Positions 5,234 to 61,829 of a stretch of DNA of 64,000 bases are shown here, piece after piece. The stretch covers positions 70,308,001-70,372,000 of the forward strand of contig NC_092345.1 in NCBI RefSeq assembly GCF_963676685.1, read 5' to 3'. The notes below the pieces were generated by a model. The model ran no database searches, had not been told where the DNA came from, and saw nothing but the letters and a program-made list of their open reading frames with translations. This DNA comes from Mytilus edulis. Its lineage: Eukaryota. The position numbers and the translations under genes were made by a program. Numbering within the stretch: the stretch's first letter is position 1; each line of letters starts with the position of its first letter.

Positions 5234-8200
5234 TTATTTTTTATTTGGTTCTAAGTATCTTGAAAGTAGAAGATTACTGATATCGAAATCTGCTCTGGTA
5301 ATATTTCCTCGCCTATGATTATCAGCAGAAAATTCTAAAACGGCGTTCATTGCAATTCCTAGCCTTCCAACAAACTCAACTGAAAAAGATGTAAAATTAT
5401 CTCTTGCAGTATACATAAAATACAGAAAGGGATGACGCCCGTCACCCTTTTTCAGTTTTAAAGATCCCTCGGGGCGAATTCGAATCCGTTGATGTGAAGG
5501 TAAAAAAAGATCTCCCGATCTGTATGCCAAGCTGTTTTTCTGTTCTTGATGCTCTAAAAGTACAGAGTCTACACGTTGTTTTAAGCAACATTCTGCAATG
5601 AAATAAATTGTTTTGTCCGTTTTCTTTAGAAAAAACACTAAGACTGTACACAGCATGCGGGTACCATAAAAAGCTTCTAATTCGTCCGTCAGTATTGTTG
5701 TTAGTTTCTTGTGGTCAAGCTGGTTCGGTTTAATTCTAGCAAAAAGCACACTGAAATAAAAATAATTATTGATAGTTTTAACAACCCAATAATCAAAACA
5801 CACAGTTCCAAAGATATATGTATTATTTCAGGAAAGCAGCGTGCCGAAACTATAACAGAAACGAAAGTATTTCAGTATTGCTTGATATTCTTTGAGACGA
5901 GTTTCAAGCTTCTAGTATTGCATATTGCAATAATGACAACTTAGTCAGCTTCAAACAGTGTACGTTATCTTTCTCTTTGAAGGTGTTTTGTCTTTATTAT
6001 AAGAATGGTATTTATTACTATTGATGATTTTAAACCATTTTTTTTTTCTCATGTAAATTTTGTGAGTACTAGATATGTTGAAGGTGATTATTTTTCTATT
6101 GATTCAGTACTTTGCAAATGTCTGATTAACATTAAGCTAAATAGTCACCAACACACTTCATGACTATTAATTATGTGTAACACATCATCATGTTCCAATT
6201 ACTGGTCATCTACACTGGACATATACTAATTAAACCATAAGGAAACAAGTAACGAAGTGATTTTATTTATATCACAGGAACTGACCGAAAGCGCATCAAA
6301 AAGCATCGAAAAAAAAATAGTAGAAAGTTAACGTTCGTTTGTTTCTTTTGACAAGTGTTTAATTGTGGTTGCTTTATAGTGATATTTTTCGTTGTTTGGT
6401 TGTGTTTTTTATAACTTTTTATGCCCCACCTAGGTATCCAGTATACAGATTGGGTGTTTTCATAGTATAACAAAGAAGAAACAAATTTATGATATATATA
6501 GATTTATAAGCTATATGACGACCACGGGCTGGAAAAATGAGAAAATATTTCGGTTTTATTTATAATATGACTTGCTAAGTAATATCATGACATTGCATAA
6601 TCGAAGCGTTGTGAAAATAACCATCATAAAAAATAAAATAAACTTATCGTTATTCTCCTGTGTCTTTAATATTTACCCATCAGAGTCTCGTATTTGACCA
6701 GTATACTCCTTTGTGTCAGTCTTTTTACCTGTTGGAAGAACTACGATTTCACTCTTATTGAAAACAATCATTTTTACGTGAGGATTATCTGAACCAACTA
6801 GTTCTTGGCTACTTTTCGGGTCACTGGTTAGTCTGGCAGAAACACTGATGGGTCCCTTTAGTTGTGTCTTGTTAAAATCTAATGTTATCTTGTGGCTCAC
6901 GGCTTCAACCAATGTCTTAGAATAAACGTCCTTGTTCTCAAGTTTTCCAATAGGTCTTTGTATCTAATAAATATGTTGTAGCAATATAATGTTCACAAAA
7001 GGAGGTGAAATGTTTTTAATTACATTTTTTTCGTGTTTCCAAAATTTCGATTTTGAAACAAAATCTAAGATATTCTGTGGTGTTTGTCGATGATTGAATA
7101 GTTCGTTGTTGTTCTGCGATTTGCATGTTGTGTCGACTATTGTATTATTTGTTTGTCCGTTTCTCTTTGATCACTGTTTTTGCCTGTATTTGTGCTGTAT
7201 TTCTGTCACGTAGTGTTTTCATTTTAACGATATTATTTAACATTGTCATGAAGCAGGAAGTTTGGTTAGCTATTCAACCAGATTCAACCCACCATGTTTT
7301 CTTAAATCGTCCTGTACCTAGTCAGTAATATTGCAGTTGTTATCAAATAGTTCATTTCTATGTATGTTGGCGTTGGTTCCGCTTCCTTTGTTTTCCTCTT
7401 ATAGTTGATGTGTTTTCCTCAGTTTAAGTTGGTAACCCGGACTTGTTTTCTCTCAATCGATTTATGACTTTTGAACTTTGGTATACTACTATTGCCTTTA
7501 TTTAAGATATCGTGTACATGATATAAACCCAGATGAAACATTTGTTTTTATGATATTGTTCTTAAAACACTGACAACAACGACGAACTTAGCAAACATAT
7601 ATTACGTAACGTTAAAGTCAAAACAAACGACTGTCAATCGAATTGACAATAATGGAATTTATGTATTATACTAGTACATGAATTCGGTTATTTTAGTGAA
7701 ACGTGTGTATTTCGTCGTTACAGTGCTTTCTTTGTCATATTTTATTTAGTTGTTAAGATGTACAGTTATGACGTCAAAATTTGAAGTAAACGTTCTTTTT
7801 AACTTTTAGCAGCGAGAGAGCAAAAATAATTAGATGGAAGACTTTTTCGAAAAAAAAACATCCTCCATCCAATATATATAGAAATAAAATAATAAAAGTG
7901 ATATATACATACCATATACTCTATTTTTAGTTCTACCTCTGTACAGCCTTTCGTAAAGTTAACTGTCATGCAATCATTCCCTCCAGTTTTTATCACAGAT
8001 CCCTCAGACTTCACGTCATGTTTAAATTTTTTTGGGCGGGCCACAAGCAAAAAGCTATTCATTCGACAGCATGGAAATTCAATATAGTCAAACTGTCATT
8101 ATAATGAACAATTAGCATTTAATTTCAAAACATCAGTATTTTCAAAAATTTTGTTACAGAATATTTTTTCGTAAAGTACTCGTATACATATACAGTGTTC

Positions 8201-10781
8201 GTAATAACTCGTTCCAACCAGCGTAAAACATCGTTACCTGACTCCGTGGACAATTTAGAGATGATGTTTGTCATTTATTCATTCATGCAGGCGATTGTAT
8301 TCGATCTTGCAAACCGTAAGGGTAAACCTGTGTATGTGTAGGCACAATTCGTAACATTCAGGCAAAAAATGGTGAACATGTTTAGCTTGTTCTAGAATTA
8401 AATACACACTAATCGTAATGTCGTCTAAGTACAGTTATTGCGTCATTATTTTGGTCTTGTTTGTCATTGTTTAGTTAAGTGTTTCTGAATATCAAAATGA
8501 ATTAACATTGTAATATGACCTTAAAGATGTTATGAAGATAAGGTAAGTGTTTTAAAGTGTTTAACTAATATGTGTGTACAAGCATTTGTTTTAATTATAT
8601 AGATACTGGTAATAAAGAAAATATAACGCTTGCCTACACAATTTAAAAGAAGGTAATACGGAGTCCTGTTTCTTTTTCCTGCGTGTTTCAACATATTATT
8701 TGTTATAATTTACAATTGCTTTTAAATATTATGAAAAATAGAAACTAATGAAAAAATTTCAATATGAAGATTTATTGTCATGGTTTGTTAAAGTAATGTC
8801 AAGCCGTTTTTAAAACATTTATGAATCATACATATAACCCAAAATGAAAGAAAAAGGGTATGACAAGGAGAGGCTTAAATATTATAGAAGTTTGTGCAAA
8901 CGTCCGACTTGTATTATGCTAAACTTTATGTGATGAGGTTACCAGTTAATTACCTTTACATATGCTGGCACCTCCTTCCATCTGTTCTCTGCATCTTCAA
9001 TTAGCGCCCAATAATCATTAATGTCGCTGTCCTTGACGAAGGAGTGGTATACCGGAACTTGAAGGTACACTTTCTTCTTATATTTATCGCGGACAGAAAA
9101 TACACACTGTTTTTCTTTAAAACGTTTACTTTCTGAAGGATCGGTCAATTCTTCCAATCCGGGTGTATCAGGTTGGCCTAATAGTCTATATATGTCCGAC
9201 ACCAGCGTGATATGATTTGGAAGACTTACATCATTAAGATAGTCGTCTCTTTCCTTAGATGTCCAATTTTCCACTTTAAAACATTTAAATGGTGCTGAGA
9301 GTTCTGGTTCTGTCCGTAATCTGATCCCCTGCCCTAAAACTACAATACCGTGTCCTTCAACGTAATACAAAAAATCATTCAAAACGTGTGGATCGGGTGA
9401 ATGGTCGACAATCCTGGGGGTGGGTGGTGTTGATGGTCGTTCTGGACTTTCTTCTCTCTTAAATCAAAAACATGACTTTTCAAATAATAATTTATACAAA
9501 TTATCAAATGAAACTTTTTATCGAATGCGTACTTGTCATCCTCCACCTGCTGTGTACCCTAGAGAAATAAGAATCCTTACATACCCGTTCTGATCACCTG
9601 AATCCCTGTCACTTTTAATAAATTTGCATTTCTAAATTGTTATGCCCCCGCATACTTGCATAAAAGGTGCATATCATTTCCGGATAGCATTTCCGGATAA
9701 CTCCCCCTACAGTTTGAATGCTAGGAAGTTTTCACTTTGTTGCTGTTAGTACATATATTGAAGGTGTGCATGTGGTCAGGGTTTTGATTTTTATTAATAT
9801 TTGCTCTTTTGGGAGATAGTTAGACTTTGTCATTTTTGGAGTATATATTACTTGCATAAGAGGTGCATAGCATTTCTGAATAACTCCTCCTACAGTTTGA
9901 ATGCTAGGAAGTTTTCCCTTTGCAGGTTGTATGTACATATATTTAAGGTGTGCATGTGGTCAGGGTTTTGATATTTATTAAAATTTGCTCTTTTGGGAGA
10001 TAGATAAAAAACTTTGTCATTTTTGGAGTATATCGTTATACTTGCATAATAAGTGTATAGAATTTCCGGTTAACTTTTTCATTAGTTTGAATGCTAGGAA
10101 GTTTTCACTATGCAAAAATAGAATTAACTGTAAAAAGTACATATTCCGAAGAACAAATTAAAGAAAATTATAACACGCGAATAAGATGATAATTTACCAT
10201 ATCACTATAGCACAATGACGGGATGTTTAAGTACAGAGACACGTCAAATGGATATTTCCACATATGAACTTAGCAGTAAAAGCTTTATTTATAAAGACAA
10301 ATTAAAGAATACTATAACAATTTATAAGGATGATAATTTATAAACTTGATATGAAAATCTAGAGTTTTGAGTATCGGTATATCATTGTTGATCCTTACTT
10401 ATTTAATTCAGCGTGTATTAAGTATTTGAGTAATTTACTGATATTTGTTTTCCGATATTTGTATTGTGGTAAAAAGTACTTGTTTTTAGTTTCGTACACT
10501 TTTTAAACTTATATATTTACTTTTTATTCCATAGGTCATTCTTAAAATTATGAAACGGTAGTTTTTTCTGCAAGAGCTATTCTAATACTTTATTGCATTT
10601 TATACAGGATTTTATACCGTTTCAAACTATATCATTTGCATATATTTGAAAGGCTGGATTTTTGTTTTACAATAATATTGTTTCCACTGTAAGAAAATAT
10701 TTGTACTTAAAATTAAAAATGATAATTCATTACCTTTTCTGGTCGCGGTTTTGAAGGTCCAAATATACGCGAAAACATCAT
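5234..10781 (-). CDS. Paralogue A: ZU5-ZU5-UPA protein, DTHD1/PIDD-like, no death domain (~511 aa)
   Basis: Exons 10781-10734 (MMFSRIFGPSKPRPEK), 9457-8954, 8092-7913, 6963-6677 and 5750-5234. All introns are GT-AG, phases 0,0,0,2, and the frame is open. Homologous exon by exon to B and C. LVSDIY..VPV..W..VP, EF..RMNSFLLVARP..G..I...V.F.KG and CTVLVFF..AECC..F.LP.HQRIRIRP.G resemble ZU5a, ZU5b and UPA. Confidence 0.8.
9638..10110. mobile_element. Helentron/HINE-like element with ~190-bp tandem core (about 2.5 units)
   Basis: Begins ttgttatgcccccg (DINE/Helentron-like end); the unit start tacttgcataa recurs at ~9653, 9849 and 10039. Lies in intron 1 of paralogue A. Confidence 0.55.
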
Positions 10782-12783: not shown

Positions 12784-12827
12784 GCGTCCGAAGCGCTTTT
12801 CTAGATTTACCTTCATCAGGATCGCTC
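12784..12827 (-). ncRNA. Type I hammerhead ribozyme, minimal stem II variant (retrozyme fragment)
   Basis: Minus strand reads GAGCGATC-CTGATGA-AGGTAAATCTA-GAAA-AGCGCT-TC^GGACGC: intact CUGAUGA/GAAA core, palindromic stem III, stem I pairing. Confidence 0.7.
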
Positions 12828-13957: not shown

Positions 13958-16900
13958 TTATTGTTCGTATCGTTCTAGTGTAGTGTTTGATAATATAAGA
14001 CCTCCGACATTTGGATGTTTACTTTCCGTCTCCGAAACGACAGTACTACAATCAGATGGACAATGAATCGAGGAAGCGACGTGATCTACACCTGCTTCTA
14101 TTGATTTCAAATCACTGCTTTTGATAATTTTAACAGTTTCTATTTTGGTGTCTGTTTTAGATGGGTTTTCTCCAGTGTCCAATCGATTTTGAAGAAAGCG
14201 CAAACTGTCTAGATTGAATTCTACTTTCGATATTTCTGTGTAGGTTTTGGTAATGGTGTCTGTTGAAAAGCATAATATTGCATTTGGTGATCCTCCCATT
14301 ATTCTATTTATTTGAACCTGGAAAGTTAAAGCATTTTCACTGGAGACTGACAAGAAAAGCATCCATAAATGAGCACCATTGCCTGGTTTTAATCCAATGC
14401 ATCCTGCCGGACGTATCTTGAATCGTTGGTATGGTGTTAAAAATAAATTCTTTGATTTATGAATAAGAAAGTGTCCTTCTTGTTGTTCCATATTTATCAG
14501 CACTTTGGTCTGGTCTGATCGACAACAATTAACCCTTAGCCGTAATGTTGATGAATTTCTCTTCAGAAAATGAACTAAAATGTTACATAATAGTCTACTG
14601 CCATAAAACAAATTCAATTCATTTGTCAATTTTATCTTAGTGATTTTGTCTTCTTTAATCTTAAGTACTACTGCAAAAGATACTCTGTAAAAATGTAATA
14701 AAGAAGATCAGTTATAATGGTCAAACACAAAACATACAAAAAAGATGAATATTCAAGCATAAACTAGAGTAAAAGCATTCACCCTGTTTAAGTCTACTAA
14801 CTATCTTTTTAAATTGAGTGTGAATTAATGATTTCATTCGACATTTCCATCAATCTCCTCTTTATTTGTATATCTAAATACAAATTTGTCTTTTGTTTTT
14901 TGTTGCACTTCAGTGTTTCTGTTGTTTTGTTGTTTTTCTTTTCTAGTTGATGTGTTTCCCTCGATATAAGTTTGCAACCTGGATTGTTTTCTCTCAATCA
15001 AATTATGCCAGCGAAATACTGCTGGAGCCTTTATATAGTACAACATATTTTAAAATAGGTTTTATTAGATCAATTACTTTAGTTTGTTTAATAAATTTCT
15101 TGCAAACCATGAAAAAGACTTTCAGAACCAAGCATATTACCGTTTGTATTCTTGTCAAATATAGTTAATCATTAAACGTGCTGTTTTCAATGTTTTACAT
15201 CACTGGGTCGATACCTCTGCTGGTGGACTATCAGTCCTCGAGGGTCTAATCAGATCAGTAATCAGTAACAAAATTTTCTAAAATTGTCCGTTTATAGATT
15301 TTGAAATTATCAAGAAACTAAGATTGCAACTCCCTCAAGCAAAGTTGACTTTAGATGAATTTGGCTATCAATTTTAGGTATTTTTGTCATATAGCTCTTC
15401 AACGGTTTCGGTACTTATACATCCTCGGATTTCAAATGTTTGGCTTTGAGCGTTCCTGGTGAAGGTACATCCAGAAAAGCGCTTCGGACGCATTGAAGTT
15501 ATTGAACGTGTTGTTTTCAATTTTTTATTGTATTGTTTTTACATTTTCGTCCTTTGGTTTATTAAAAAAATTGTCTCATTGGCAATTATATCATAAAAGT
15601 TTGAGAATCATAGAATCTTACTTAAGTCTGAAACTTTAAATGTTCGTGGTGATAAAGTACACAACATTTGAATAAAGTTATTATAGAAATCATAAATACC
15701 CGTCATATCCATGTAGAGAACCACTGTAAATATCATCTGCACTCTTCTGCCTGGATTCAACAGTAGAAGCTGATCCATCCTTGTAACCAACCAATATAAT
15801 TTCAATTTGTGACTTATTAGGAGGGTTTAGAGGAATGTTGGTGAGGGATACCACTACCTTTATTGGTTTTAAGAATTTCGACTCATCATATTCAAAGTTG
15901 ACTTTGTTGCTCACATGTTTGACATGTCGTGTAGATGTGTGAATAGTTCTGGAAAACTCAACGTCTGGGGTGTGTACCTAAAACAATTCAAGTACAAAAT
16001 GTTCAGTTATTTGCCAAAAGAGGGACGAAAGATACCAAAGGGACAGTCAAACTCATAAATCTAAAACAAACTGACAACGCCATGGCTAAAAATGAAAAAG
16101 AAAACAGAAAAACAATAGTACACATGACACAACATATAAAACTAAAGAATAAACAACACGAACCCCACCAAAAACTAGGGGTGATCTCAGGTGCTCCGGA
16201 AGGGTAAGCAGATCCTGCTCCACATGTGGCACCCGTCGTGTTGCTTAGGTAGCACTCCACAGTTAGAAAATAAAATTAAAAATGAGCCACAAAATGTTTT
16301 ATCATCTCCTATTCCTGGATTTCTAATACATTTACCTAACTGTTTGTGTTGTACATGTGCATATGTATGTAATCAGTATATTCCATAGATTTGATTTTCA
16401 AAAGTTAAAAGAGTGAAAATAAATTCCTTTTATGTGTATCCATGGCAACATTCTGCATTTATTTACCATAAAATATTGCAAAAAGGGGGGTGGACATGTC
16501 ACATATCCCCCCTAAATTTGGATCAAACTAAAATTTCAATGCCTTTGAGTAATACCTTTTTAGAAACTGTTTTCATAAATCTTCCTAATGATTAAATAAA
16601 AAATGGGGGTCTTTCGCCTCATTTTTTCGTAAAATCCAATCACAAAGTTCGTGCGATAAAAAGTTGGAAAAAAACATTACAATAATTGCTGGACCAATGT
16701 ATGGTAGGGACATGCAAATACGGACTGTCATACAGAAAACAGCCTATATTACATACATTACATACTCTTGATGTTCATATAAACCCAATACAAAGGCTAT
16801 TTTAATACTCAGCTATCCAAAAATTAATTTTATTGCACACTAGCTCTCATATTTGAAAAATCCACAGGGGCCAAAATGCTAAACTACACACCTAACTGTG

Positions 16901-19900
16901 GAGTGCTACCTTATGTAATTACAAATCCGGTAAATAGTCTAATTCGGTAGGTCACATTCATGAAAGGGAAGGGGATTGTAGTTACGACGTAAGGAACATA
17001 TCCGATATCATTTGTGAAACGGTTATTCCATAACGGTCAACAAACTCGTGATGGCGTCCGTAAAATTTACGAAGGGATGATTTCAACTTCACCATTTGGA
17101 ACTCTTGGTTTAATAGCTTCCTTGTGAGCAGTAACCCTCTATCAAGACAATCATGATAGGAAATGCAAGCACGGGAATATCCGATTCGTATCAATTGGGA
17201 GATATATACCCCGGATGCAGGTGCTGCTGGAATGTTGCTACTTAGAAATGGAAAGTTCACAATTGGAAAGCTGAAATCATCTCTTTTGTCGTAAAGTTTT
17301 GTTTTCAACCGACCCTCATTGTCAATTTCTAAATGTAAGTCAAGATATGAAGCCGACTTAACTGTATCCTTTATCTCCAATTCGATGGGATAGATGCGTT
17401 CCACATAGTCACCAAATTTTGCATTGTTCAAAGATGCATATACGATACCATTGAGCAAAATATGTTCATGAACAAAACATTTAGATTATGTATCATCAAT
17501 ATTATGTTGTGAGCTTTTGTTATTAGACCATTTAACCATACACATACCATTGCTTTCTTAAAGAAGTAGGTTAAGTAAGATCACGTTTTGGCCCCAAAAT
17601 ATATCTGTTTCACAAAATTGTTAAAATGTAAACTTTGAGATATTTATTGGAAACTAGATTGCTTCTGCTACATAAATATGGGCAGTTTTTGACAATACAA
17701 TGTACATATATCGGGTACTAGCATCATTAAGTCATGCTAAATTACTGAAATCTTCACAATTTTATCATTAAGTTTTTTTTTAGACGGTTTCCGTCTTAAA
17801 TGAAAGTGGCTGCATTTGTGTTCATTCGTTATATTGAAATGTAAGTTGTATTTGATGATAATACATAACATATATAAAGGTTGAGGATGAACACGGATGC
17901 GGCCACTTTCATTTTTGACAAAAACCATCTGAAAAGTTACATTTTTGGCATATTTGATAGATTTTTTTATATTTAAGCTAGAATCGGAGCGTTTTAAATG
18001 AGTAAATCAGTTAAAATCTTTAAAATAAACTAATCGAATCAACTGAAATAGACACTTAAGTGTTTAAAAAGTGTCTAAAATCGTTCGTCAGATGAACTTG
18101 AAATTTGAGGCCAAAATCGGCCCTTAACAAACCCACTCCTTTGTTGCTGATAGTCTTTCCAGAAAATAAATTAAGATTTATTAAATTGGGTTTACATTTA
18201 TGGTTTTCTACATTAAGTACAATCATAATTATGCCTCATTCAATGTACGGATGTGTGTCTGATTACATTAATAATTCAGAAAACAACGCATCTGATGGTA
18301 AGGTTTTAAAAAGTAAACATCTAATGACTCACATTCAATACTAACCGTATACCTAAAGTTTTCATTTGATTTCACACAATCTTTATCAAACTTTAAAATA
18401 GACGCACAGCTATTCCCAATTTCTATTTCAGTTCCCAATGGATTGATAATCACATTCATCCGCTTTGACTGAATAACTATTCCAAAACTGTTAAGTCGAC
18501 AGCAGTAGAATTCAGCAAAACCATCCTAAATATAAATATATGTTATATGAGTTAGGGTGAGGGCATCAGAGGTATTATACTAGCCATGTTTTGCCTGGAA
18601 CAACAAGACGTATGTCCATTTTCAAATTAAACTTTGAACTGAAAATAACCCTTAGATAAAAAATAAGATGTGATATGATAGCCATGAGACAGCTCACCAT
18701 CCAATTCTTGATGAGTAAAAAGTAAACAATTATTCAAATAGGAAACCAACGGTCTAATCTATATGAAAAATACTTTGATACTCGATTTTGTTTGATAATA
18801 TTTAACAATGGAAGAACTAAATTATTTCATATTTTATAAAACTCAAATACAAAAATACTAAAACTATCAAAGCAACACAAACAAAAGCATACAAAAATTA
18901 TGCCAAAACATGGCAAGTAAAAAAACCATACCGTTCTAAATCTTATAACATTCTTACAGAATTTATTTTGTTTTTAATATTGAAAAAATTGAATTACAAA
19001 AATTTTTAATAAACATGTTTTTTTTATTAAAATAGACAAATCGTTTTTGGAGGACAATACATGTAACTAAAAAAAGATAGTTTCAATTACATTACATTTT
19101 GGGAATGTTCTATTGCTGATAATATCTGTCGATTTATTAGAGAATTAAAGATAAAAAGCATAACTTACAGTAGATTGATTTTAAAATACTTCATGAAAAA
19201 TAAATTCACAATTTCTTAGCACCTAAAATATAAACTAAACTATCTAAGCTATTTAAAATTTGTTGCTGTTCAAATTGTATAAGGCAAATAACCAAAAAAT
19301 GTTTTAATCGATTACTGAACACATTTCATAAAATGAATGAAAATGTTGTGGTCATTACATTGTATTCTATTTTAGAAATTTAATCATAACATTTTGTTTT
19401 GATTCATGACAATAATTGATCATTCAATATGACTTTCTTCAATTACCTTTTTAACTAGTTTTATACTTGTATAGATGTTAGTGAAACGTTTATATTTTCA
19501 TAGTTTAATTTTCAATAGAATCAACAGCTTCAAGAACAACTTATTGCGATAAATCTGAACAAGAAATGCTAAACTACAAACAGGAGGACATTTGGGTATA
19601 TTTTAGTAAGACATTAACCCAAATATTCAAAGACAACAAAATACTTTTATAAGTATAGGTATGTAGCAAAATTTACCTTAACCGTGGCTGGAAGCATTTT
19701 CCATACTAATCCGTCATTTATCCAAGCAAAAGCCTCGTAAAATTGACTCCCAGTTTTTTCAAAGAAAGTATTTATAATGTTGACACTAAAACACACTTTG
19801 TCATTAAACTGGGAGGGTAAATTGAATTTATCTAATTTTTCCTTCTGAATTTTAACACAAGGGTTTCCTGTTTCTCCTTTCTGTCGTTGAACAGTTCTGA

Positions 19901-22808: not shown

Positions 22809-24305
22809 TATGCAGTTATTTTTGTAAAAATAAAACTAATAGTTGTGGTGTGTTGATTTTTACTTCCTTCAAAAGCCAGTTATACAGTCATGAGTTGATG
22901 GTAGTTGTGTTTGCCCCACCAGATTTGATCCTAGTTTTGTATTGTGCAATCTTATTTTGTTTGTGTAATTTTTCGTGAAATGTTGAAATTCGTACTGTTG
23001 TTCTTTATTAATGGCCATATCTGTTTTCCTCGTCTTATGGTTTGCTTGTCTGCGTGAAATCTTATCCCTCTTTCAATTACTTAACCAATAGCAGGTGTTT
23101 AATCATTGCAAGCAGATAGATTTTGTTTTCATCCCATTACTTTCTTATACGTTTGAACATTAAAACTCAGAGGCACCAGGTTTACAATTGTGTATGCCAG
23201 ATAAAAATAAAAGGTTCACAGATACTATTACTATATTGGTTGATCGTTATGGAATTCACAGATGACGACGGATATGTCCATATTATTGTACCAACAACAA
23301 TCCCATCCTATTTTCTTCAAATGTGACTATAATAGATTTATCACCGAGGTTGTACTTACCAGAGCATTACGACAGTACCACATGTAATACATGATTTCTT
23401 TACACTTCCAGAGGATATGAGATAACCACAGGTTTTTGATGTGGTTCGTGTAGATCCGTTTTCAGGTTTCTTTGTTGTGTTTTGTGTACTGTTGTTTGTC
23501 TTTTAATTGTTTTTCTTTCTTCTTATGCTACTAATTATGAGTTTGTTTTTCCACCTGAAAGTTTGAATACACTCATTCGCCTAGCTCTCTTTGCAATGCT
23601 GTTTTAGTCATTTTGCATCATCAATGTAAATATATACCTGATATATGTTAACATATATCTATTTATTTAATAAAATGCGATATAATTATATTATTGAACT
23701 TAGATGTATATAAAATTTAAAACTTACCAACGTGATTTAAAAAGTGTAAGGTTTGAATTATTTTAAACCTAACAAAACAAAGACTTTTACTATTCTGTTT
23801 AAATGTAACTTGATATTTATTAATCGTCAAATCCACTAACAATATAAAACGTATTGTTATTTGAAACAATAAAAAAGATATACAATATCCTTATTGTTTA
23901 CCAATAAGATCATGGTCTCTAAACATAGCGGGTATTGTCTTAATCCTTGTAAACCATAGGCATAACTCTGTGCCTCCCTCGAGATTTGAAGTTAAGGTGT
24001 ACCTATCTACAATGCATTAATTCATGCTGAACTTTGCAAGCCAAACATTTCTCTGTAGTTCATCAATACACGTTAAGCTAGTTATTTGTTTAATGAAAAA
24101 AATATTTTAATGATAATAGTTAACACAGTGATATGTGCCGTCTATGTAATCTATTTATAAATTATTAAAACAATTGTTGGTTTTGACGACCACTTCGATG
24201 CTGAAAAAAAACCTGCCAACGTATTGTCAAAAGGTGGGAAAAACAAAAAGTATATCAATGCCAATATAGGAAGTTGCCTAGTTACTTTTAGTACAATGAA
24301 TATTT

Positions 24306-24693
24306 ACGCGTCTGGCGTACTAAATTATAATCCTGATACCTTTGAAAACTATATTCACCACTGGGTCGATGCCACTGTTAGTGGACGTTTCATCCCCAAG
24401 GCTTCCACCAGCCCAGTAGTCAACATTGAAGTGTTGACATGAATATAAATAATGTGGTCATTTCTTATAAATTTCCTGTGAACAAAACTTGGAATTTTCC
24501 GAAAAACTAAGGATTTTCTTATACCAGGCATAGATTACCTTAGCAATATTTGGCACAACTTTTTGGAATATTGGATCCTCAATGCTCTTCAACTTTGTAC
24601 GTGTTTGGCTGTATAAATATTCTTGATATGAGCGTCACTGATGAGTCTTATGTAGACGAAACGCGCGTCCTGGTATCTTTGATAACTATTTAC
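24306..24693 (+). mobile_element. Complete non-LTR retrozyme monomer (357 nt between cleavage sites 24312 and 24669)
   Basis: Starts acgcgtc^tggcgt (3' half of a HHR) and ends gcgtca-CTGATGA-gtcttatgtagac-GAAA-cgcgcg-TC^; post-cleavage sequence is partly repeated after 24669. Confidence 0.85.
24630..24669 (+). ncRNA. Type I hammerhead ribozyme
   Basis: Intact CUGAUGA and GAAA boxes, stem II GUC/GAC, palindromic stem III CGCGCG, GUC triplet. The stem I partner uggcgu is present at 24313 (circular form) but deleted after 24669. Confidence 0.85.
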
Positions 24694-25953: not shown

Positions 25954-26469
25954 TTAAGCCCGCTATTATCAGCCTGTCTCAAGCAAGGAGTCAGTAATCC
26001 TGTAGCGGCTATAAATAAAAGCAACTGTAGTATACTGCTGTTCGAAATTCATAAATCGATTGAGAAAAAACAATCCGGGTTACAAACAAAACCTGAGGGA
26101 AAAGTATCAAATATAAGAGAACTACGACACAACAGAAATGTACCACACATAGAAACGTACTATAATGTAACAATCGCCATTTTCCTTACTTGTACAGGGC
26201 ATTTTATGAAAAAAGTGGTGGGTTGAACCTGGTTTTGTGGCATGCCAAACCTCCCGCTTTAATGGCAATGTTTGTTATAACATTAAAATGACACGACAGG
26301 GTTACAATAAATAAATGGGAGAAAATATAGGACAGAGAAACAAACGAATTATACCCATTAAAAGGTAACAGGTTAAAAAAGAATGCAAACGCCAGACGCG
26401 CGCTACGTCCACACAAAACTATGCTCAGATGAAAAAAGTTTGAAAGCCATAACAACTACAAAGTTGAAG

Positions 26470-27016
26470 ATCGCCGAGGATCTAACACGTGGTAAAAATG
26501 TCCATAGTTAGTTTGGACAAAGATACATCGTATTGATCAACCAATTAGTGATGGTGTCTGTAAAATTGACGAAGTGTCATTTTTAATCTGTCCTCCTCAT
26601 AACTTTGTTGTAGCAGTTTCGGAGTTAGGAGCACACTCCTGTATATGAAGTCCGTATAGTGTGAACATGCACTAGAATAACGTATCAATTGAGATATGTA
26701 AACACCATACGAAGGGGCAGAGGGTATGTTACTGCTGAGAAATGAGAAATTGATAATTGGGAAGTTGAAATCGTCCCGTTTATCATAGATTTTCGTGTGA
26801 AGTCGTCCATCTGTGTCAATATTGAGGACAAGATCAGGGTATGAAGCAGTCCTTCTAGTATCAGTAGTATCCTTAATTTCAAGTTCACTGGGATATATGA
26901 GATGCAAGTATTGGCTGAAATATGGGTTATTAAATGATAGGACATCATCAATATATTAGAAAGTAAAATTAAACAATTTCGCAAGGTACTTTTTCTGTTT
27001 GTCTTTTAGAAGGGTT
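26470..27016 (-). mobile_element. Penelope-like RT fragment (second subfamily)
   Basis: ORF 26545-26907 IYPSELEIKDTTD..KIYDKRDDFNFPIINF..GVYISQLIRY; the upstream frame retains an IDDVLS-type motif. Confidence 0.8.
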
Positions 27017-27356: not shown

Positions 27357-30300
27357 TTAAATTGTGTTTTTTAAACCCCGGATATTTGAGGGAGAACTTG
27401 GTTGTGTTTTAAAGATATCACTCAGTGTTGAGTTTGCTCGACTCATAGTTTGTCTTTGATTCCTACTTGACAGAAAATCTAAACTGAAGTCCGCCTTTGT
27501 AATTTCTCCTCTTCTTTGGTTATCCGCTGAAAATTCTATTATAGCATTCGTTGATCTGCCCATTCCTCTATTCAATTCAACAGAAAACAACGTGTTATTC
27601 TCTTCAGTAATATACATGAAGAAAAGAAATGGATGATTTTTTATTCCAGGTTTGAGTCCTACACAACCAGTTGGCCGAATTCGAATTCGCTGATGCGGAG
27701 GTAGTAAAATATCCATAGATTCGAAAACTAGTTTGTGATCTTTATGTTTAGAAATTATGTCTGCTAAATTTCGCTGCAAACAACATTCAGCTTTAAAATA
27801 AAGAGTTGTATTTTCTTTCAAGGTGTAGAATAACAAGACTTTGCACACCTTTCGATTTCCGTAAAATAAATCCAGTTCGTTTTTTAACGTTTCTGCAAAA
27901 TTTTCATTTTCCCTCTTTCCACGTTTAATTGCAACTAAGGCTGCCCTGAAAAAGACCAATATTGAGTAAAACTAGTACAATCCTATGTCTATAGATATAA
28001 TATTCAATACAAACAAAGTGAAATGAGTATCTCATAAACATGTTTAAAAGAGGGACGAAAGATACCAAAGAGACAGTTTAACCCCGCCGCATTTTTGCGC
28101 CTGTCCCAAGTCAGGAGCCTCTGGCCTTTGTTAGTCTTGTATTATTTTTATTTTAGTTTTTTGTGTACAATTTGGAGTTTAGTATGGCGTTCATTATCAC
28201 TGAACTAGTATATATTTGTTAAGGGGGAAGCTGAAGGACGCCTCCGGGTGCGGAAATTTCTCGCTACATTGAAGACCTGTTGGTGACCTTCTGCTGTTGT
28301 CTTTTCTATGGTCGGTGTGTTGTCATTTGACATATTCCCAATTTCCATTTTCAATTTTATACATCTATAAAACCGCAGCACAGTATACGCCAATGATGCA
28401 GAAGTAGAACATACGTCTATGAAACATCAGCAGAGTATACGTCAATGATACAGCAGTATAGAATAGGTTAATCAGACATCAGTAGAGTATACGTCGATTA
28501 GACAGCAGTATATTCTACGCAAATGATACATCAGTAGAGTATCTCTGGCCCGATAACCCAGTTATTTTGTAGTGCAATTCTTTTAGACAATAAATTCAAA
28601 TAAAAAAAATCGTACCTGCTCCCTCAATTATTATTTTTACAGTGTAGTGTACTATTATTTGGACAAATAATATAAAAATTATCGAAACTTCTACTACCTC
28701 TTACTCAAAGAATATTGACAATTTTGTGTCAAAGGGGGTCTAAAATTAAGTCTGACAGCTTCAGACGTACTAAAATATGACCTTTTGTAACTGGACCAAA
28801 TAACTACTTAACATAAAGATTAGCACCCAATTTTTTTAACATGTAATTTTCATTCCCTTACTTAATATTTCATTGATTAAATATCAAGAAAAAGATTAGG
28901 AAACTGTATAAAAAAATGCAAGTTATACATGCTCAAATTATGGATACAAAAAAACAAAAGACGATAATTGTGTCCTTGGACAGTATGTCGATGAAACAGT
29001 CGACGAGACAGCAGTAGGGTATACGTCAACTAGGCAGTAAAAGAGTTTATTCTTATACTAGTAAAACAGCTGTAGGATAAACATCAATAAGACAGCCGTA
29101 GAACTACCTGTGAAAAGCATTTATTTTGTTTATTTTCTTTGGTTACAACTTCTGACATCAGACTCGGACTTCTCTTGAACTGAATTTTAATGTGCGTATT
29201 GTTATGCGTTTACTTTTCTACATTGGTTAGAGGTATAGGGGGAGGGTTGAGATCTCACAAACATGTTTAACCCCGCCGCATTTTTGCGCCTGTCCCAAGT
29301 CAGGAGCCTCTGGCCTTTGTTAGTCTTGTATTATTTTAATTTTAGTTTTTTGTGTACAATTTGGAAATTAGTATGGCGTTCATTATCACTGGACTAGTAT
29401 ATATTTGTTTTGGGGCCAGCTGGAGGACGCCTCCGGGTGCGGGAATTCCTCGCTACATTGAAGACCTGTTGATGACCCTTTGCTGTTGTTTTTTATTTGG
29501 TCGGGTTGTTGTCTCTTTGACACATTCCCCATTTCCATTCTCAATTTTATTATAAGGCAGACATTACCTGTGAAAGGGGACGAAGTCTGTATGATATATT
29601 TTTTTAATTCAAACCTTTCTTAACGTCAAAATCTGTTAAAAAAGAAACGGAAATTACGTAACGTTTCCGATTTTGGTTCTGTTGTTATGGATTTTAGTTG
29701 TGATGTTATTTAAGGTGGTATGGGTGTCTTCCTCCATCTTGGATTGTAAAAAACAGAGAACCAAAGGTCCAGATTTGCCATCAAGTTAGCAAAATTTGAT
29801 GCAGGAATGCAGATATTTAATGTGAATTTTCATTTATAAGAACCAATTTATAAGAATATAACTTATAAATATAAATATTTTTGTAAATGTTAATTACTTT
29901 TGGTTGTTTTTAAAAAAATTTAAATTGGCATTTTAAGGGGAGGTAACTCTAAAACAGTACAGTTTCTGAAGGATTAATTCTACATGGAATTTTTTTATTT
30001 TGTATTTTAGCCGGAAAAAACGTACGGTGACCCTATCTTTTCTTTTGATATTCTCAAAGCAGTGTCTGAAAGCTATCTTTTCCTGAAGTATTTAACAATT
30101 CTATCATTTTGTTTAGTTTCTAATTACAAAATGGTGCTTTTTCCTGTATAACCCATACAAAATGTGTCATTTTGTCCCGTCCTGTAGCTTTAGAAAATGC
30201 GTGGTGACCTATCATTTTTATTTTATTTTTCAACATGTATCAATAGATACTACATTTTGGCAAAGTATGAACAAATTCTATCATTTTTATTTTAGACTCC

Positions 30301-33300
30301 CATACCACCTTAAATTGACGTTATATTCAATGTAAACAAAGAAACGCAATCATCAGATGCCGTTTTTTTTTCATATCAAGGAATCATTAAAAATGAAATT
30401 GGTATTGCTTTCCTTCATATATTTTACTAGCCTGACAAAAATATATTTTACCCAGTCTCATGCAATAAAATTAACGGTACCAATTTTCTTGCACCAGATG
30501 CGCATTTCGACAGTACATGTCTCTTTAGTGATGCTCGTGGCCAAAATATTTGAAATCCAAAGCTTATATGAAACAAACGAGACAGGAAAAAGGAAGTAGA
30601 TTTCTGCACAAATGCGGGAAAACACAAAAGTCTGAAAATAAAAAAGTTTACGACTTTGATTTTTCCCGATTTTTTCCCCGTTTTTTTTTTTATTATTATC
30701 ATTTTGTTGATTTTACAACTGTAATAGGGGACTTCGTCCTTTAATTCTCTTCTATGTTCATACTACCTTTGTGCAAATGATAGAAATGAATGAAATGCAT
30801 TGGTTAATCCCCATTATCATAACCATTGATTCGCCTTTTTACACTTACTTTCAGTTCACTATTTTATAGACAAACATATTTATATGATGTAACATTATAA
30901 TGCACCGAGACTCATAATGCATATAATTACCCATCATAACCTTCCAATTTTCCAGCAAACCTTCCAGCTGTCATCCGTTCTGCTTTTGTATCTAGGATAG
31001 TAGGTTTTTCATCTTGGTAGCCGACAACCTTGATATCGAACTCCTCAAAATCAGATCCTTTATCTTCATTACAAGTGAGTGTTCCACTTAAATGTATTGG
31101 CTTTTTGAATTGTGATTTTTCATAATTCAATCTGATTTTGTCGCTGACAGATGCCACCAATGTTTTGGAGTTTAACGAATGCTTTGCATATTCCATGTCA
31201 GGTCTTTGTATCTGCAGAAAAGATTAAATACAACTTGCATCCGTTTATTAGCGTCAGCAAAGACACCATTACATTCTATTATCTTTTAAATAGTATTAAT
31301 ATTTTCTATGCGTGAAACTTATGTGTGTTCTACTTTATGGGGCATATTTCTCAATGTTCTTTTTATGCCGGCGTCGTTAATGATTTCAGTTATTCAACGA
31401 CGTTACGTTTGTGGACTTAGATTTATGCACGCCGTCATACGACTTATCAGTGACGATCAGATCAATATAGTTGTAAATCCAAACAAGTACACAGTTAGAG
31501 AGCATTGAGGACCCAAAATTTCAAAAAATTGTGCCAAATACGGCTAAGATAATCTATTCATGGAATAAGAAAATCTTTAGTTTTTCGAAAAATTCAAAGT
31601 TTTGTAACAGGATTTATAAAAATGACCATATACTCATCCATTATGTTTTACTAAACTTACAGTATATCCCTTTTCAAAACAAAATAAAGAAACCAGCCTG
31701 TGTGTTTTGTCAAATTGCTTCTTATTGAAGTTTATAAACACATACATGTGTATTGATACACATGTTCATGTAATTATTAATTTAGACAAAACTCGAGAAA
31801 AAACATACCCTTGTCATTCTTTTATGTTCAATCTTCAACATGTGGAAAATAAATTTACAACAGTGAAAAGATGGTACTGATTCAACGGTTAGTTTGTCAC
31901 TTTAATGAACATTATTTCAAAGTGAGAGAAATTATTTCATTTTCATATCTATGAATCGTTTTCACGTCTAACTGAGACAATGATTACATACATGCACATG
32001 TAGTTCAAAAATAAAAGTAAAATTGATTTTTTTTCTTTCTTTTTATCCTTTTCATATTTGGGGTCTGAAAATTTATCCATTGCATACAAAGCTGATTTGG
32101 GGCTTCCAAGGTTGTTTATTTCGCTTCATTCAGTTTTGTTCGATCACTTAAATCGATTGGTTAAATAGAGAATAATACATAGCAAAATCCGTATCATATG
32201 TCGTATCATCCCGAGACATCAATATCAGCCCAAGGGCCTTTAGGCCCAAGGGATGATATTGGTCGAGGGTGATACGGCATGTGACACGGATTTTGCCATG
32301 TATTATATCAGATTATCATATACTTAGACTAAATAACATATGATTTTTACCGTATGATGATAGCATTAAATAAAAGTATTTTCCATATCTTTCGAATTGG
32401 TGCTTAGCGGGCTGATATGGAAAGTTTATCACATGCTTCGATTGTTATCACATGCCTTTCCGTAACGTTATCACATGGCATTCCGGTGATACTCGGCAAA
32501 TTCCGGAAATTACACCTCAATGCTACGTTTTCAGTGAAAAACATTACAAGTAGTGTACAAAACAATAATTTATTTGAATACTGGAAAGTGTATTGTATAA
32601 AATATTTAAATTAAATTAAAAAAAAAACAATTATTAATAAATGCATTTTTTAAGTTTGTCTGAAACATAATTTAGAAAGTTACTTTTAAAAAGTTGACTT
32701 TTCCAAACAATGTTCATTATGTATATTGTTGAATTATTTTTTTTTGTCGATTCGTCCATATTAAAATGTGTGTGGTTTTTTTTTCTCTGTTGAGGCATAT
32801 GATAGAAAGATTTCATATTGAATGTATCAAATTTGGGGTCCGACGTCCGTGAACTTTTTACTCTTTCAACTTCTTTTCGGGAACCACGTAAAAGGATCAA
32901 TATATGAATCTATTATTTTTCTCTACTATTGAAGCATATGATAAAAAGATCATGACATGTCATTTTTCATATCGCATGTATTATCAGCCCTAGGTTCAAT
33001 ATCAGCCTAAGAGCCCATATGCAAAACTACTGTATTTACTACTAAACATATGATAAATAGAGAATAATACATGCCAAAATCCGTATCATATGCCGTATGA
33101 TCCCGAGATACCAATATCAGCCAGAGGGCCTTTAGGCCCGAGGGATGATATTGGGCGAGGGTGATACGGCATGTGATACGGATTTTACCATGTTTTATAC
33201 GCTTTATCATATATTTCAAAAGGAGAGTATAGTATGAAATTCAAAACAGTGTGGTTGTGGCCATTGATTGACACATTAAATTCATTCATTGACTGGGACA

Positions 33301-36300: not shown

Positions 36301-39300
36301 ATGAGAATGATGACTCGGTACAAAGGAAAATACATACCGGAAATAAACTTCTCATGGATACCAGGATTGAAATTTGATATTCGCGCCTTGTATTTACGCC
36401 AGACACGCGTTTCGTCTACGAAAACTCATCAGTGACGCTCGAAAAAGATGTTTTAAAGGCCAAAAACAAAGTTGAAAAGCATTCAGGAAATACAACTAAT
36501 ACCGGCGTCACACATCAGCGTATACATTTGTAGCTCCGGCGTGTTAAAAATCATTTACGCTGCCAATATGCTTTAAGCGTGTATTGAGCGTACTAGAAGC
36601 GTACCTAAGGCTAAGCGTTTATCCGGCGTTCAAGAAACGTATGTTGGCGTATGTTGTATGTTTTTTATGCTGCATACACATTTCCTCGGGTTGTAGCGTT
36701 CATCAAGCTTATTTACTTCCCTTCAGTGGCTTGAGGTATAGGGGGAGGGTTGATATCTCATAAACATGTTTATCCCCTCCGCAATTTTGCGCTGTCCCAA
36801 GTCAGGAGCCTCTGGCCTTTGTTAGTCTTATATGCTTTTTAATTTTAGTTTCTTGTGTATGATTCGGAGTTTATAATGACGTCCATTATCACTGTACTAG
36901 TATGCATATTTTTTAAGGGGCCAGCTGAAGGACGCCTACGGGTGCGGGAGTTTCTTTCTACATTGAAGACCCATTGGTGGCCTTTGTCTGTTGCCTATTC
37001 TATGGTCGGGTTGTTGTCGCTTTGACACGTTCCCCATTTTCTTTCTCAATTTTACCTTTGTTTTTCGATGTACTTCAAACTTATGCAACGCGCTTTGAAC
37101 GATTGCTAAACGTTCCCATGGCGTGCAACTAACGTATACCGACTTTGTCAGTTTTCTCTGTACGTTTGATGCACGCTGGTCTATCCGCCAATGTGTGACG
37201 CCGGCATAAGGTAAGGTAGAAAAGCCTTAGTATTCCAAAGAAAACGCATGGAATTTAACCAGCTGAATTGCAACACATGACAGATTCATAGATGTTACAG
37301 ACTTTGAAAAGAAAACAAAATAAGGCTGATTGATAACTTGGCGTAAATAATAAATTCATGCGAATTCGAGCGGCCAATCAGTCCATATAACGCTAATTTG
37401 AAATGACACACCCTTTTAATGAAATGTAGAGAATTTTTTTTAAAATAAAAGTGCTCTTTCTATAAGGATAGTTATTATTACTGTTGCACCGTATTGTAAT
37501 TTTTTCGTTATAAGTACATCTCTTTTTTTTCAATTGTGAAATATAAACTCAAGGTAGTAAGACTATTGTCGTGGCTAAATAACTCTTAACTGACACGATT
37601 TAAATTGTCCAACCCATTAACAGACTGTATTCCCCTAATATTCATTAAAATGTGATATAACTCAATTTATATAACAATTATGAAATATTTATCAATGACA
37701 ATTGATTTTTTAGAACCAAAGTACTACTTTGTGTCCTTTAAATCATATCTAAAAATGGTTTTAGGCCTTTTATCTAAAATATTGCTATGCGTACAAGCAT
37801 AAAAACCACATACTTGCGCGACGCCTTTTCGTTTTACTTAAAATTGCGCAGACTATGCATTTTTTTTAATGGTGGAAAATGTTCTATGATAGATATCATT
37901 TTGTCAGACACTTTTCTTTTTTTGATGTGATTCTCATAATGTGCCAAAAAATCTGTATATTTAACAGAGTTTAACATTAAATTGTGAGTTTTACTCTTAA
38001 CAGACGTATAACCAACCCGATTAACAGACCCAACGCCGATATAGCCGCATACTCAATATAGATTAACCGACCTATCTCTCGGTTAGCCGAGTGTCGGCCG
38101 TGATGTGGTTGAGCAATTTTTCACTGGCGTACACACTCACATTTCATCAATGCATATATATATCTCCATGTTAATTTAACTGTAACTTATGATTAAAAAA
38201 AATGAAAATAACACGGTACATTTTGTATCCGTCTGAAGCGCTTTTCTTGTTGTACCTATCCTATGAACGTTCAATATAAAAAAAAAAAAGAAGACGTTTT
38301 ATGATTGCAAATGAGACAACTCACAACAAGAGACGAAATGACATAGAAATTAACAGATATAGGTCATCAATGGGCCTTTAACAATGAGCCAAGCCCATAC
38401 CGCATAGTCAGATTGAAAAGGATACAAAATCACAAATGTAAAACAGTTCAAACGAGAAAAGTAACGACTTAAAAAATGTACATTTTTGTTAACGAAAAAC
38501 AAGTATACAACAAACGACAACAACTGAATTTCTTACTTGTGACAGACAAATACATACAGAATGTGGCGGGGTTACCTTAGATGTATTTGGCAAAACTTTT
38601 AGGAAATTTGGTTCTCAATGCTCTTCAACTTCGTACTTTATTTGGCCTTTTTAATTTTTTTGGATTCGAGCGTCGATGATGAGTCTTTTGTAGACGAAAT
38701 GCGCATCTGGCGTAGATACAAAATTTAGTCCTGGTGTCTATTATGAGTTTATATTAAACAGGCCATATATTTGAAAGTCAAGGTAAACACCAAAATATCG
38801 GAAGAGGTATTTTACCGAAATATGGCAAGCAATAAAATCAAGATACAATGGAATTTGATGCGACTATAATACAAGTGAGATATTTAGCTAGCTATAAAAC
38901 CAGGTTCAATCCAGCATTTTTCCTAGGAAAATGCCTGTGGTAGCACTCCACAGTTAGAAAATAAAATTAAAAATGAACCACAAAATGTTGTATCATCTCC
39001 TATTCCTAAATTCATTAACCTAACTGTTTGTGTTGTACATGTGCATATGTATGTGACTAGCATCATCCATAGATTTGATTTTCAAAAGTCAAAAGGGTGA
39101 AATATAATTCTGTTTATGTGTATCCATGGCAACATTCTGCATTTATTTACCATAAAATATTGCAGAAAGGGGATTTAAAATATCACACAGCCCCCTAAAA
39201 TTTGGATCAAACTAGAATTTAAATGCCTATGAGTGAGAAACTGTTGAAATTAATCTTCCTAATGATCAAATAAAAAATGGGTGTTTGGTTGGGTTTTTTT

Positions 39301-42300
39301 TTGCCTCATATTTCGTAAAATTTTATCACAAAGTTTGGGCGTCAAAAACTTAGAAAAACATTACAATAATTGCCGGACCAATGTATGGTATGGATAAGCA
39401 AATACGGACTGTCATACATAAAACAGCCTAATTATATTACATGCATTACATAATCTTGTCGTTCATATCAACCCAATATGAACTTCCAGGCTATTTTAAT
39501 CCTCACCTTTCCAAAAACTAATTTTATTGCACATTAGCTCTTATATTTGAAAAATCCCCAGGGGCAAAAATGCGAAACTACACACCTAACTGTGGAGTGC
39601 TACCTTTTAAGAATAAATTTGTCCCCTCCTGCCTCGAATTTTAATACATTGTCTGTGTTTTACCATCTGTTACGATTAAAATGGTACCCTATTTTTTAAA
39701 ATTGGTTCAGTAATAAAGATTTAATGAAGATAATTATCATAAAATTACATTAAAATAGAAACATTGTTCGATTGTTAGGTATTTAAAAGCCCTAATAGGT
39801 CAATTTTGCTGTAAATAGCATACGTAATCTTGGTTTAGAAGCTCTAAGGCAGGGTATAAATTTCTAACAGTACTGGCGTCATTAAATTTAATAAATGCCA
39901 AATTATAATATAAAATCCTGCTTAAATTATTCGCATTCCAAAATATAAAGCGATACATTCTGAGGATATCATATAAAGTGCAGCGCAATATTTGGTTATA
40001 AGGGCGAAGCTAATGGAGTACAAATTTAAGACCGCAACATGTGTTAGTGTCAAAATGTGTATATTTAGTTGCTAAGGACAGTAAACAATAAAATAAACAT
40101 GATTGCAATCCTAGCAAATTTTTTAACTTCAGAACTAAGTCAAGAACATAAAAGGACCAATATATGTATGGTATGGATATGCAAATACGGACTGTCATAC
40201 AGAAAAAAGCCTGTTTTACATACATTACATAGTCTTGATGTTCATATAAACCCAATATGAAGGCTATTTTAATCCTCAGCTATCCAAAAAATCTCATGTT
40301 TGAAAATCGACATGTGCCAAAATGCATAGAGTCAGGCAATATGACATTTGGTATCTATTCGTTTGGTGTGTTTGAGCATTTGATTAGGGACTTTCCTTTT
40401 CTGAATTTTCCTTTGAGTTCAGTATTTTTACTTTATACATCTGAGGTCAATATACAAGTATAAAACGTTGGTATCATTGCCATTGAGAAAACTTTCATTA
40501 GGGACCGAAATGTCGGTAAAAACTATATTTCACCATACCGCCTTCAACAATGACATGAAGTATGTAAAACAAGTTAAACAAGAAATCTAACGGCAGGATT
40601 TGTGTACAACATTATGACCGAAAAACAGATATGATATTTGGCAACAAACAATAACCACTGAATTACAGTCTCCTGACTATGGACAAGCACATGCATCATA
40701 TGCAACGGTTAAGCATGGTTGTTGTGTCACAGTTCTCACCTAATATAGGAAAGAAATTTAACAGCACAGCATTAGAGAAAACTATCAAATTAAGCTTGAA
40801 AGTATTTGACTCTTAAGATCGACACAGAGTACAAAGATAATAATTTGCCTTTGACAGTTTGAACCTTAGTTTCGTTTAAAAATTATAAACGTGGTATTTT
40901 ATAAATCATATCAGTACTACATTGGTGATGATAATAATTTTGAAAGACTAATAGTTCACTATATGTGGTATCTACCCTATGATACTGCAAGGCATATAAC
41001 AAAGTTTAACTTGTATGCGTCCGATGAGCTTTTCTTGATTTATATTCATCAGTAATTCACATGGCCAATTAATTGAAAGCCAAGCATGTATAAGTGCCGA
41101 AACAGCAGTAACTGTTGAAGTGCTATGAGACCAAAAGACTCCTTAACATTTCAAGACACATTTTAAAGAGTAAAAAGTATGTCGAAACGGTGCTTTCAAC
41201 AGTCATTTATAATGTATTAATAACTGTACATGTCTTAGTACAATGTAGAATGGTTTTAAATTGATATTTCAATGAAAACACTAACTGTTGCATATAAAAA
41301 CCGTGCGACTAAACGGTTAACATCTGTAATTGTCTGCTGCCTCTTAGTTGACTTTTATGTACAATTTCAGTTTTATTAATGTTTTTACAAAGTGCAATAT
41401 GCTGGAGCAGTTTGATAAGTTACTTTAATCTATCATTATTGTATAAGGGACCAATTCAAAACAAAAACAAAAAGAAAACAAACAGAAATTGAACTGATTG
41501 TTCTCTGAAGGTTTTTAACTTAAAATGATGATAATTAAGATTTAAATGAACTTAAGTTCTTTTTCTTTAATCACAAACAGAAAATACGTTGTCAGATAAC
41601 TTATCTTAACTTTAATACTCGAATAAGAACCTATATAATTCTATCAAATGATATATTTTACCACTGATATTATACAATGTATTGAAATTCTGAATATTTA
41701 TTTTTCTATCTAAACATGTTTACGTGAAATAACACTGCGATAACAGACAGTGTAATTCAGCTACGAATGTCTTTATATAATACTGAATTAAATTGAAGTT
41801 TTATTTGTTAGTTATCACTCTTTCGAACATAAATACATAATTGACCTAAACAAACATTACCCTCAAAGATGCAGGTATGGCTGTCCAAGTATTACCACAT
41901 TCTACCCATGCCCAGTAAGTATTTATGTCTTTATCTTTGATGGGAAATTTGTTTTCATCCACTGGGACCTGGAAGGAAACTTGTCCATGATGTTTATGAA
42001 CTAAAGAAAATGAACACTGATTTTTCTTTATGTGTTTCTTTTCGTCAGGATTAGTGATGGTTTGCGAAGATTTTGTTGATGACGTGGTACAAAGATTATA
42101 AATATTTGTCACAAATTTTATATTCCTTTGGTTACTTGGTGGTTTTAAGCCTTTATTTCGTGCTTCAGCGCTCCAAACAGTTGTGTTATAATGTTTTAAC
42201 GCCCCTATTAGTTCTTCTGATGTTTTAACTCTAATACCATTTCCTATCTCTAAATATTGGAATTGTTCGTCGGAAGTTTCTTCCTCAGAACTATAATAAT

Positions 42301-55256: not shown

Positions 55257-55271
55257 CTAGCAATAAAAAAT

Positions 55272-61738: not shown

Positions 61739-61829
61739 CTGAAAAAGACCGATAACGAGAAATAAATTCGTCTGTATTGAGCAGTATTTAATACGAACAA
61801 AATAGTGAAGTTAAATGAGCTGTACAGTA

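Follow-up and report, generated by a model that had tools for sequence, protein, structure and literature searches.

The 64,000-nt stretch of Mytilus edulis DNA analysed here (the window) carries on its plus strand a single retrozyme unit at 24313–24669, a decayed member of subfamily A that is 87–92% alike to the best genomic copies. Sequence inspection and pair checks confirm the proposal of an earlier note on this DNA that a real 357-nt unit with a type I hammerhead core runs from GTC to GTC, the two sites lying at 24310–24312 and 24667–24669. The first six nucleotides of the unit (24313–24318) form the 3′ strand of stem I and pair at all six positions, two of them G-U, with 24632–24637, in agreement with the stem I proposed in the note. 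The core itself (24632–24669) comprises the 5′ strand of stem I, CUGAUGA (24638–24644), a stem II of 4 bp, GAAA (24658–24661), a stem III that is palindromic at 24661–24668, as also claimed, and the second GUC. Immediately upstream, the 5′-truncated end of a preceding unit (24307–24312) supplies a stem III 3′ strand and the first GUC, with five of six positions pairing with 24661–24666. Within the unit, fold and alignment place a predicted bulged hairpin at 24360–24417, resembling the one at the 5′ starts of Naiad elements and destabilised in this copy. It holds the motif GGGTCGATGCC at 24363–24373, labelled B-box-like after the B-box consensus. A T5 run at 24560–24564 is a possible Pol III stop. 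Past the second GUC, a 20-nt deletion (unit +1 to +20, with TC microhomology; breakpoint 24669/24670) has removed the stem I strand of the second site, and a tail at 24670–24693 (unit +21 to +44) leads to the fixed 3′ end of the family, likely the point where reverse transcription started. The insertion begins about 6 nt 5′ of the first GTC and extends to 24693, the usual end of family insertions. TATTTAC at 24301–24307 recurs at 24687–24693 on the same strand, which may mark a 7-bp target duplication or microhomology used in priming; repeats of 7 nt also turned up in 8 of 124 mismatched flank pairs, so the repeat is within chance and a duplication unproven.

The Rfam Hammerhead_1 model (RF00163) matches 24632–24676 at 28.9 bits (E 5e-5), which bears out the check suggested in the note as far as a match goes, although the score lies below the gathering score of 34. 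An intact genomic junction of the family likewise falls short, at 33, and no Rfam family matched anywhere in the window at the gathering threshold. The copy has a type I hammerhead core inside a non-coding unit in the range of 170–400 nt. It lacks the pair of complete hammerheads that flank the unit in other arrays of the family, there being no core 5′ of its first site and no stem I after its second.

Around the copy, four similar exon-like open frames on the minus strand (5234–5827, 13958–14707, 27357–27971 and 61213–61911) suggest a cluster of paralogous host genes, and the copy may lie between or inside these frames. A Pfam search with one of the four gave no clear match. Farther downstream, a broken retroelement with several open frames, possibly of DIRS-like type, occupies 54097–56946 on the plus strand, with an RVT_1 match at 56140–56946.

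The copy is badly worn. Its mean identity to 58 subfamily-A units is 89.7%, against 95.0% between A units (sample of 25), from which its divergence appears to be about twice that of typical copies. At the second cleavage site only one of six stem I pairs is left, and the hairpin has a predicted stability of −17.4 kcal/mol against −28.4 in an intact copy. The exact deletion junction occurs 5 times in the genome, compared with 17,612 intact junctions. Breakpoints of many kinds, often at short repeats, were seen among 62 shortened junctions, and this variety rules out the idea that the 20-nt deletion is a special ligation product of the cleavage site. The right end is bridged by contigs from all of four sequencing runs (three species labels, kind unrecorded), so the copy is no assembly error and is probably old. 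Bridging here requires 31 letters; at the left junction and at the deletion point the contigs extend only 20–27 letters further, so neither counts as bridged. No empty-site allele was seen among the 15 of 152 joints listed for these four runs.

The earlier note held that the copy is intact, is transcribed by Pol III and gives a 357-nt circle through dimer cleavage. In favour of this, the copy retains an intact catalytic core, which could act in cis on the 5′ site upstream of it (six stem I and five stem III pairs); the B-box-like motif is rare by chance, and the GCGC-looped palindrome is conserved. We nevertheless give this reading very little credence. The insertion ends differ from the cleavage sites, and the deletion has removed a stem I strand, so “complete monomer” does not describe the copy. 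With 20 nt lost and the rest decayed, no release of a 357-nt monomer from it is expected. Its circular fold is no more stable than those of shuffled sequences (−68.3 versus −69.6 ± 6.7 over 30 shuffles), and each of the units examined is interrupted by T5 runs. The left flank of the copy has no RNA coverage, and at most a few reads lie beyond its right end, in runs from other individuals that may lack the copy. The reads of these four runs carry family letters at most of the positions private to it. The suggested dimer dependence also fits poorly with the available text of PMC7229834, in which a single cloned mussel repeat cleaves at about 0.1/min; the self-complementarity of stem III is kept in all four related families, so dimers may still help. 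We conclude that the copy is a worn member of a known family, itself probably incapable of making a circle, and that as a single locus it is ordinary: a decayed retrozyme.

The family to which it belongs is large. The intact 21-nt junction has 17,612 exact genomic matches, with none for the reversed control, and a DNA search returned 4455 candidates, 40 of which were scored at 87–92% alike. Among 61 distinct family units, 46 are 354–356 nt long and one is 357 nt long. We examined array ends in 67 arrays, namely 70 loci taken by junction in order along one contig (C1) minus the overlapping L075, L077 and L093. In 63 of these 67, the 3′ end falls at unit +36 to +52, which means that insertions end about 40 nt past the cleavage site and not at it; the 5′ ends are scattered from +28 to +331. 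Units within an array are 98.4% identical (58 pairs, 11 arrays), compared with 95.5% between arrays (55 pairs). For target duplications we set aside L110, a duplicate, and four arrays that end elsewhere. No regular duplication of the kind expected for a LINE-type insertion emerged from comparing the resulting 62 arrays with 600 mismatched pairs: flank repeats of at least 7 nt occur in 6 of 62 arrays versus 1.8% of mismatched pairs, and those of at least 5 nt in 23 of 62 versus 29.5%. Two arrays on contig C1, L071 (by eye) and L085 (57 nt, scored), appear to have long flanking duplications, unlike most copies.

We saw four related families that differ in their hammerhead stems; all four have the GCGC-looped palindromic stem III. 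The window holds further pieces of this kind. A fourth-family copy at 15190–15530 (+) has the same hairpin and a mutated core, with related cores at 12798–12819 (−) and 41031–41052 (−). A fragment at 36394–36488 (−) retains a near-intact hammerhead with extra tail bases, and other retrozyme fragments lie at 31436–31631 (−) and 38572–38707 (+). At 47003–47035 (+), a CTGATGA...GAAA core has a longer paired stem II, unlike all four families. The numerous, dispersed, low-GC copies in tandem arrays are those of a metazoan non-LTR retrozyme. By description rather than by sequence comparison, the family is almost certainly the Mytilus galloprovincialis retrozyme of Cervera and de la Peña 2020 (PMC7229834), for which the available text gives a type I hammerhead, repeats of 350–390 bp, thousands of copies, tandem arrays and abundant RNA. 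That text counts about 5000 motifs in two families, whereas we find 17,612 exact junctions and four families, and our copy differs from the retrozyme described there in being damaged.

The family is transcribed in all four RNA runs, in which 3073–8853 reads mapped out of 7–13 million records. The main junction is spanned by 476–1468 reads per run; circles and tandem read-through look alike in such reads. Three of the four runs show strand bias, which under the usual library convention favours the ribozyme strand. Read ends did not accumulate at the cleavage site in any of the four runs. Mussel retrozyme circles have been reported in the available portion of PMC7229834.

The earlier note had taken the B-box-like motif as a hint of Pol III transcription. 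The motif itself stands, at a frequency of 1.7% in 2000 shuffles, and it is present in 51 of 61 units, with a similar form in Naiad 2; the Pol III reading was not supported. Pol III terminates at T4–T5, and in a tRNA-type Pol III SINE the B box belongs to a T-arm fold and T-run terminators are absent from the interior. All 61 units have at least one T5 run between +51 and +325, 5′ of the ribozyme. A T-arm fold around the motif is 67.5% paired and has no covariation. These two results speak against the tRNA T-arm or Pol III SINE interpretation. The motif is instead one strand of a covarying predicted hairpin. Across nine sequences, 91.6% of hairpin cells are paired, and 10 of 23 pairs have changed on both sides, a count equalled in 0 of 500 shuffles. 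The nine are hand-picked related sequences, one of them 5′-truncated, with the structure predicted from an overlapping alignment, and the shuffle control ignores kinship. In Naiad family 1 the sequence differs at the motif and the pairs are preserved. Rfam matches over the hairpin are at chance level only, with no ribozyme among them. Retrozymes seem to be promoter-less in the accessible part of a review (PMC7761336).

The same hairpin stands at the start of Naiads, Penelope-like elements that encode their own enzyme. All three Naiad families seen in the genome begin with it, as do 10 named published Naiad consensuses: in the available portion of File S1 of PMC8557442, the 11-nt core of the hairpin occurs 11 times, and 10 of these occurrences open a named Naiad consensus. 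In Naiad 1, the hairpin follows directly after the repeat end and precedes the ATG at 30 of 30 loci (the query held the hairpin), and the Naiad 1 start resembles unit +40 to +108 with an alignment score of 74.5, against a shuffle maximum of 48.5. The start of the young Naiad 2 shares 84% identity with the retrozyme across 74 nt (E 2e-17). Naiad 3 has the same start element plus an inserted hairpin, and one of its loci (L284) matches the published Naiad_Mgal. The ends of insertions are also in register. Retrozyme and Naiad insertions mostly end 1–8 nt 5′ of the hairpin, with ends at most 8 nt before it in 28 of 32 cases for Naiad 1, 8 of 10 for Naiad 2, 38 of 42 for retrozyme A and 26 of 32 for retrozyme B; the anchors of this count lie 14 nt upstream, and ends farther upstream fall outside it. 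The mussel retrozymes thus share both a terminal cis element and an end register with Naiads.

The identity of these elements as Naiads is supported by their proteins. Full Naiad 1 copies have an N-terminal GIY-YIG domain, CxC, DKA and a C-terminal RT, which the available text of PMC8557442 lists as Naiad marks. In Pfam searches GIY-YIG scores 23.4 bits near the N terminus (cut-off 22.6), and RVT_1 falls below its own cut-off. Open frames of about 1000 aa are found in dozens of Naiad copies. Selenocysteine read-through was considered for one locus (L138) and rejected, the internal stop being TAA. A decayed stretch of retrozyme, its core broken, lies in the 3′ UTR of Naiad 1. Within the window, a 3′ piece of Naiad 1 lies at 26200–26955 (−), 2 kb from the copy, and its Penelope-like fragment at 26380–26955 ends in a retrozyme-like piece. 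A native joining of these two was discarded, as other copies have 600–700 nt between them and the arrangement reflects an internal deletion, by which the end of the ORF came to abut the decayed retrozyme stretch of the 3′ UTR. An orphan Naiad-like start hairpin at 50585–50664 (−) ends in ATG and is followed immediately by a Naiad 1-like 3′ end; it may be what is left of a very small non-autonomous Naiad. Two RT fragments, at 16982–17485 (−) and 51815–52534 (+), resemble the young Naiad 2 by eye, the second with an RVT_1 match.

Might the retrozyme be mobilised instead by a LINE or by a canonical Penelope element that bears a hammerhead, with the likeness to Naiads mere ancestry? Canonical Penelope families with open frames of 755–959 aa are present here, some with hammerhead-like cores just 3′ of the ORF, and Xenopus retrozymes match terminal repeats of canonical Penelope elements in the accessible part of a recent preprint (10.64898/2026.07.22.740005). 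We regard this explanation as highly improbable, because the hairpin is absent from all five canonical Penelope families examined (C-terminal GIY-YIG, DKG), its pairing is maintained in four retrozyme families and the ends lie in the Naiad register, which ancestry alone would not preserve. The survey of GIY-YIG elements covered the best-scoring 150 of 858 candidates, and 42 loci were examined for the hairpin; the hairpin model matched 1 of 30 and 1 of 12, in both cases the same Naiad 3 locus. In one canonical family (L281, L286, L287 and L290; about 791 aa), we observed a hammerhead-like core about 90 nt past the stop codon.

A different function for the hairpin itself, as an internal promoter, a translation element or an RNA-processing site, with the fixed 3′ ends arising from an RNA cut or start, strikes us as unlikely, if less so than the involvement of a canonical element. 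HDV-type ribozymes have a topology in which the outer helix does not join the first and last strands, unlike the hairpin, whose outer helix links exactly these, and this difference adds to the lack of an Rfam ribozyme match. Arrays of several units pass through the hairpin uncut. The position of the hairpin at the exact start of the Naiad unit, a few nucleotides 5′ of the ATG, would suit such a function, and so would the occurrence of the B-box-like motif in most units and in Naiad 2. Ribozymes at 5′ ends process other retrotransposons, according to the available portion of PMC7761336. The hairpin is, however, maintained in four retrozyme families that encode no protein, which makes a translation role moot, and the paired changes indicate an RNA structure rather than a DNA motif.

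We therefore return to the Naiad enzyme. The reading that we consider probable is that the copy is an old, damaged mussel retrozyme, likely inserted by a Naiad Penelope-like reverse transcriptase that is predicted to bind the shared hairpin and to start a few bases upstream of it on circular or multimeric RNA. On this comparison of sequences, the Naiad reverse transcriptase is the likely enzyme that copies retrozyme circles into the genome. In this respect the note is borne out in reading the unit as a mussel-type non-LTR hammerhead retrozyme for which a Penelope-like enzyme did the inserting, with a circle (or, as we would add, a multimer) as template. The family has many genomic copies and is transcribed, and some reads span its junction. 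Transcripts of this kind are known to cut themselves and to be closed into circles, likely by tRNA ligase (available text of PMC7229834). The hairpin sequence, its covarying pairs and the fixed position of the 3′ end are common to retrozymes and Naiads. A Naiad protein would then bind the hairpin, nick AT-rich DNA and prime by short microhomology 1–8 nt 5′ of the hairpin. A start at that point leaves the hairpin on its 3′ side, and the copies extend back across the cleavage site, so only a circle or an uncut multimer could serve as template. For the present copy, synthesis would have started at about +44, completed a single turn and ended 6 nt beyond the cleavage site that it met next; the 20-nt deletion at the 3′ site and the decay would have come later.

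The proposed start role of the Naiad protein draws on analogy with a canonical Penelope-like protein that starts internally and needs downstream RNA. In the accessible portion of its description (Frangieh et al. 2024, PMC11167929), this protein, Poseidon PAc of Anolis, begins reverse transcription internally at fixed sites that correspond to genomic ends, with a requirement for RNA downstream of them and AT-rich DNA as its target. It differs in having the canonical domain order and two start sites, with a 30–40-nt tail between them, whereas the mussel system would have one end zone on a non-coding, circle-forming RNA. Naiads as described in the available text of Craig et al. 2021 (PMC8557442) resemble the retrozyme in 5′ truncation, partial tandems and unclear target duplications and, in our comparison, in the 5′ hairpin and end register. 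They encode an enzyme and are described without canonical hammerheads, whereas the retrozyme has no ORF and, as a family, an intact hammerhead. The hairpin is not described for Naiads in that text. The Xenopus retrozymes (Li, Clavereau and Pollet, bioRxiv 10.64898/2026.07.22.740005) are likewise non-autonomous, with Penelope-like partners shown by sequence likeness. In the part of that preprint available to us, the focus is on vertebrates, with no mollusc, Naiads in one coral only and neither a cis signal nor a start site. In the mussel, unlike Xenopus, the partner lacks a working hammerhead, and a 5′ hairpin forms the link. The available portion of PMC7229834 names Penelope-like elements merely as candidate helpers and does not report the fixed 3′ end, the hairpin or the Naiad link. 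Our literature search, which extended to few subscription journals and to only some supplements, found no retrozyme–Naiad link in print. The retrozyme family is thus already known, and the Naiad helper link is, as far as we found, unpublished and testable.

More broadly, and with somewhat less assurance than for the insertion of this copy, we favour the idea that the bulged hairpin of about 60 nt, conserved at the start of Naiads from distantly related animals, is what a telomerase-related reverse transcriptase binds and takes as its start signal, and that mussel hammerhead circles captured it and are copied round into the genome as viroid-like parasites. The hairpin is the first candidate cis element for Naiads. 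The Naiad link upsets the expectation that a hammerhead-bearing Penelope element would be the helper, and addresses in testable form which enzyme inserts animal retrozyme circles and what signal it recognises: the helper is predicted to be a Naiad, the signal the covarying hairpin and the start 1–8 nt upstream. For genome writing, a transferable tag of 60 nt able to bring a reverse transcriptase to an RNA circle would be of interest. If the link is true, the reverse transcription of a natural animal circular RNA would have an enzyme, a signal and a starting point that can all be named.
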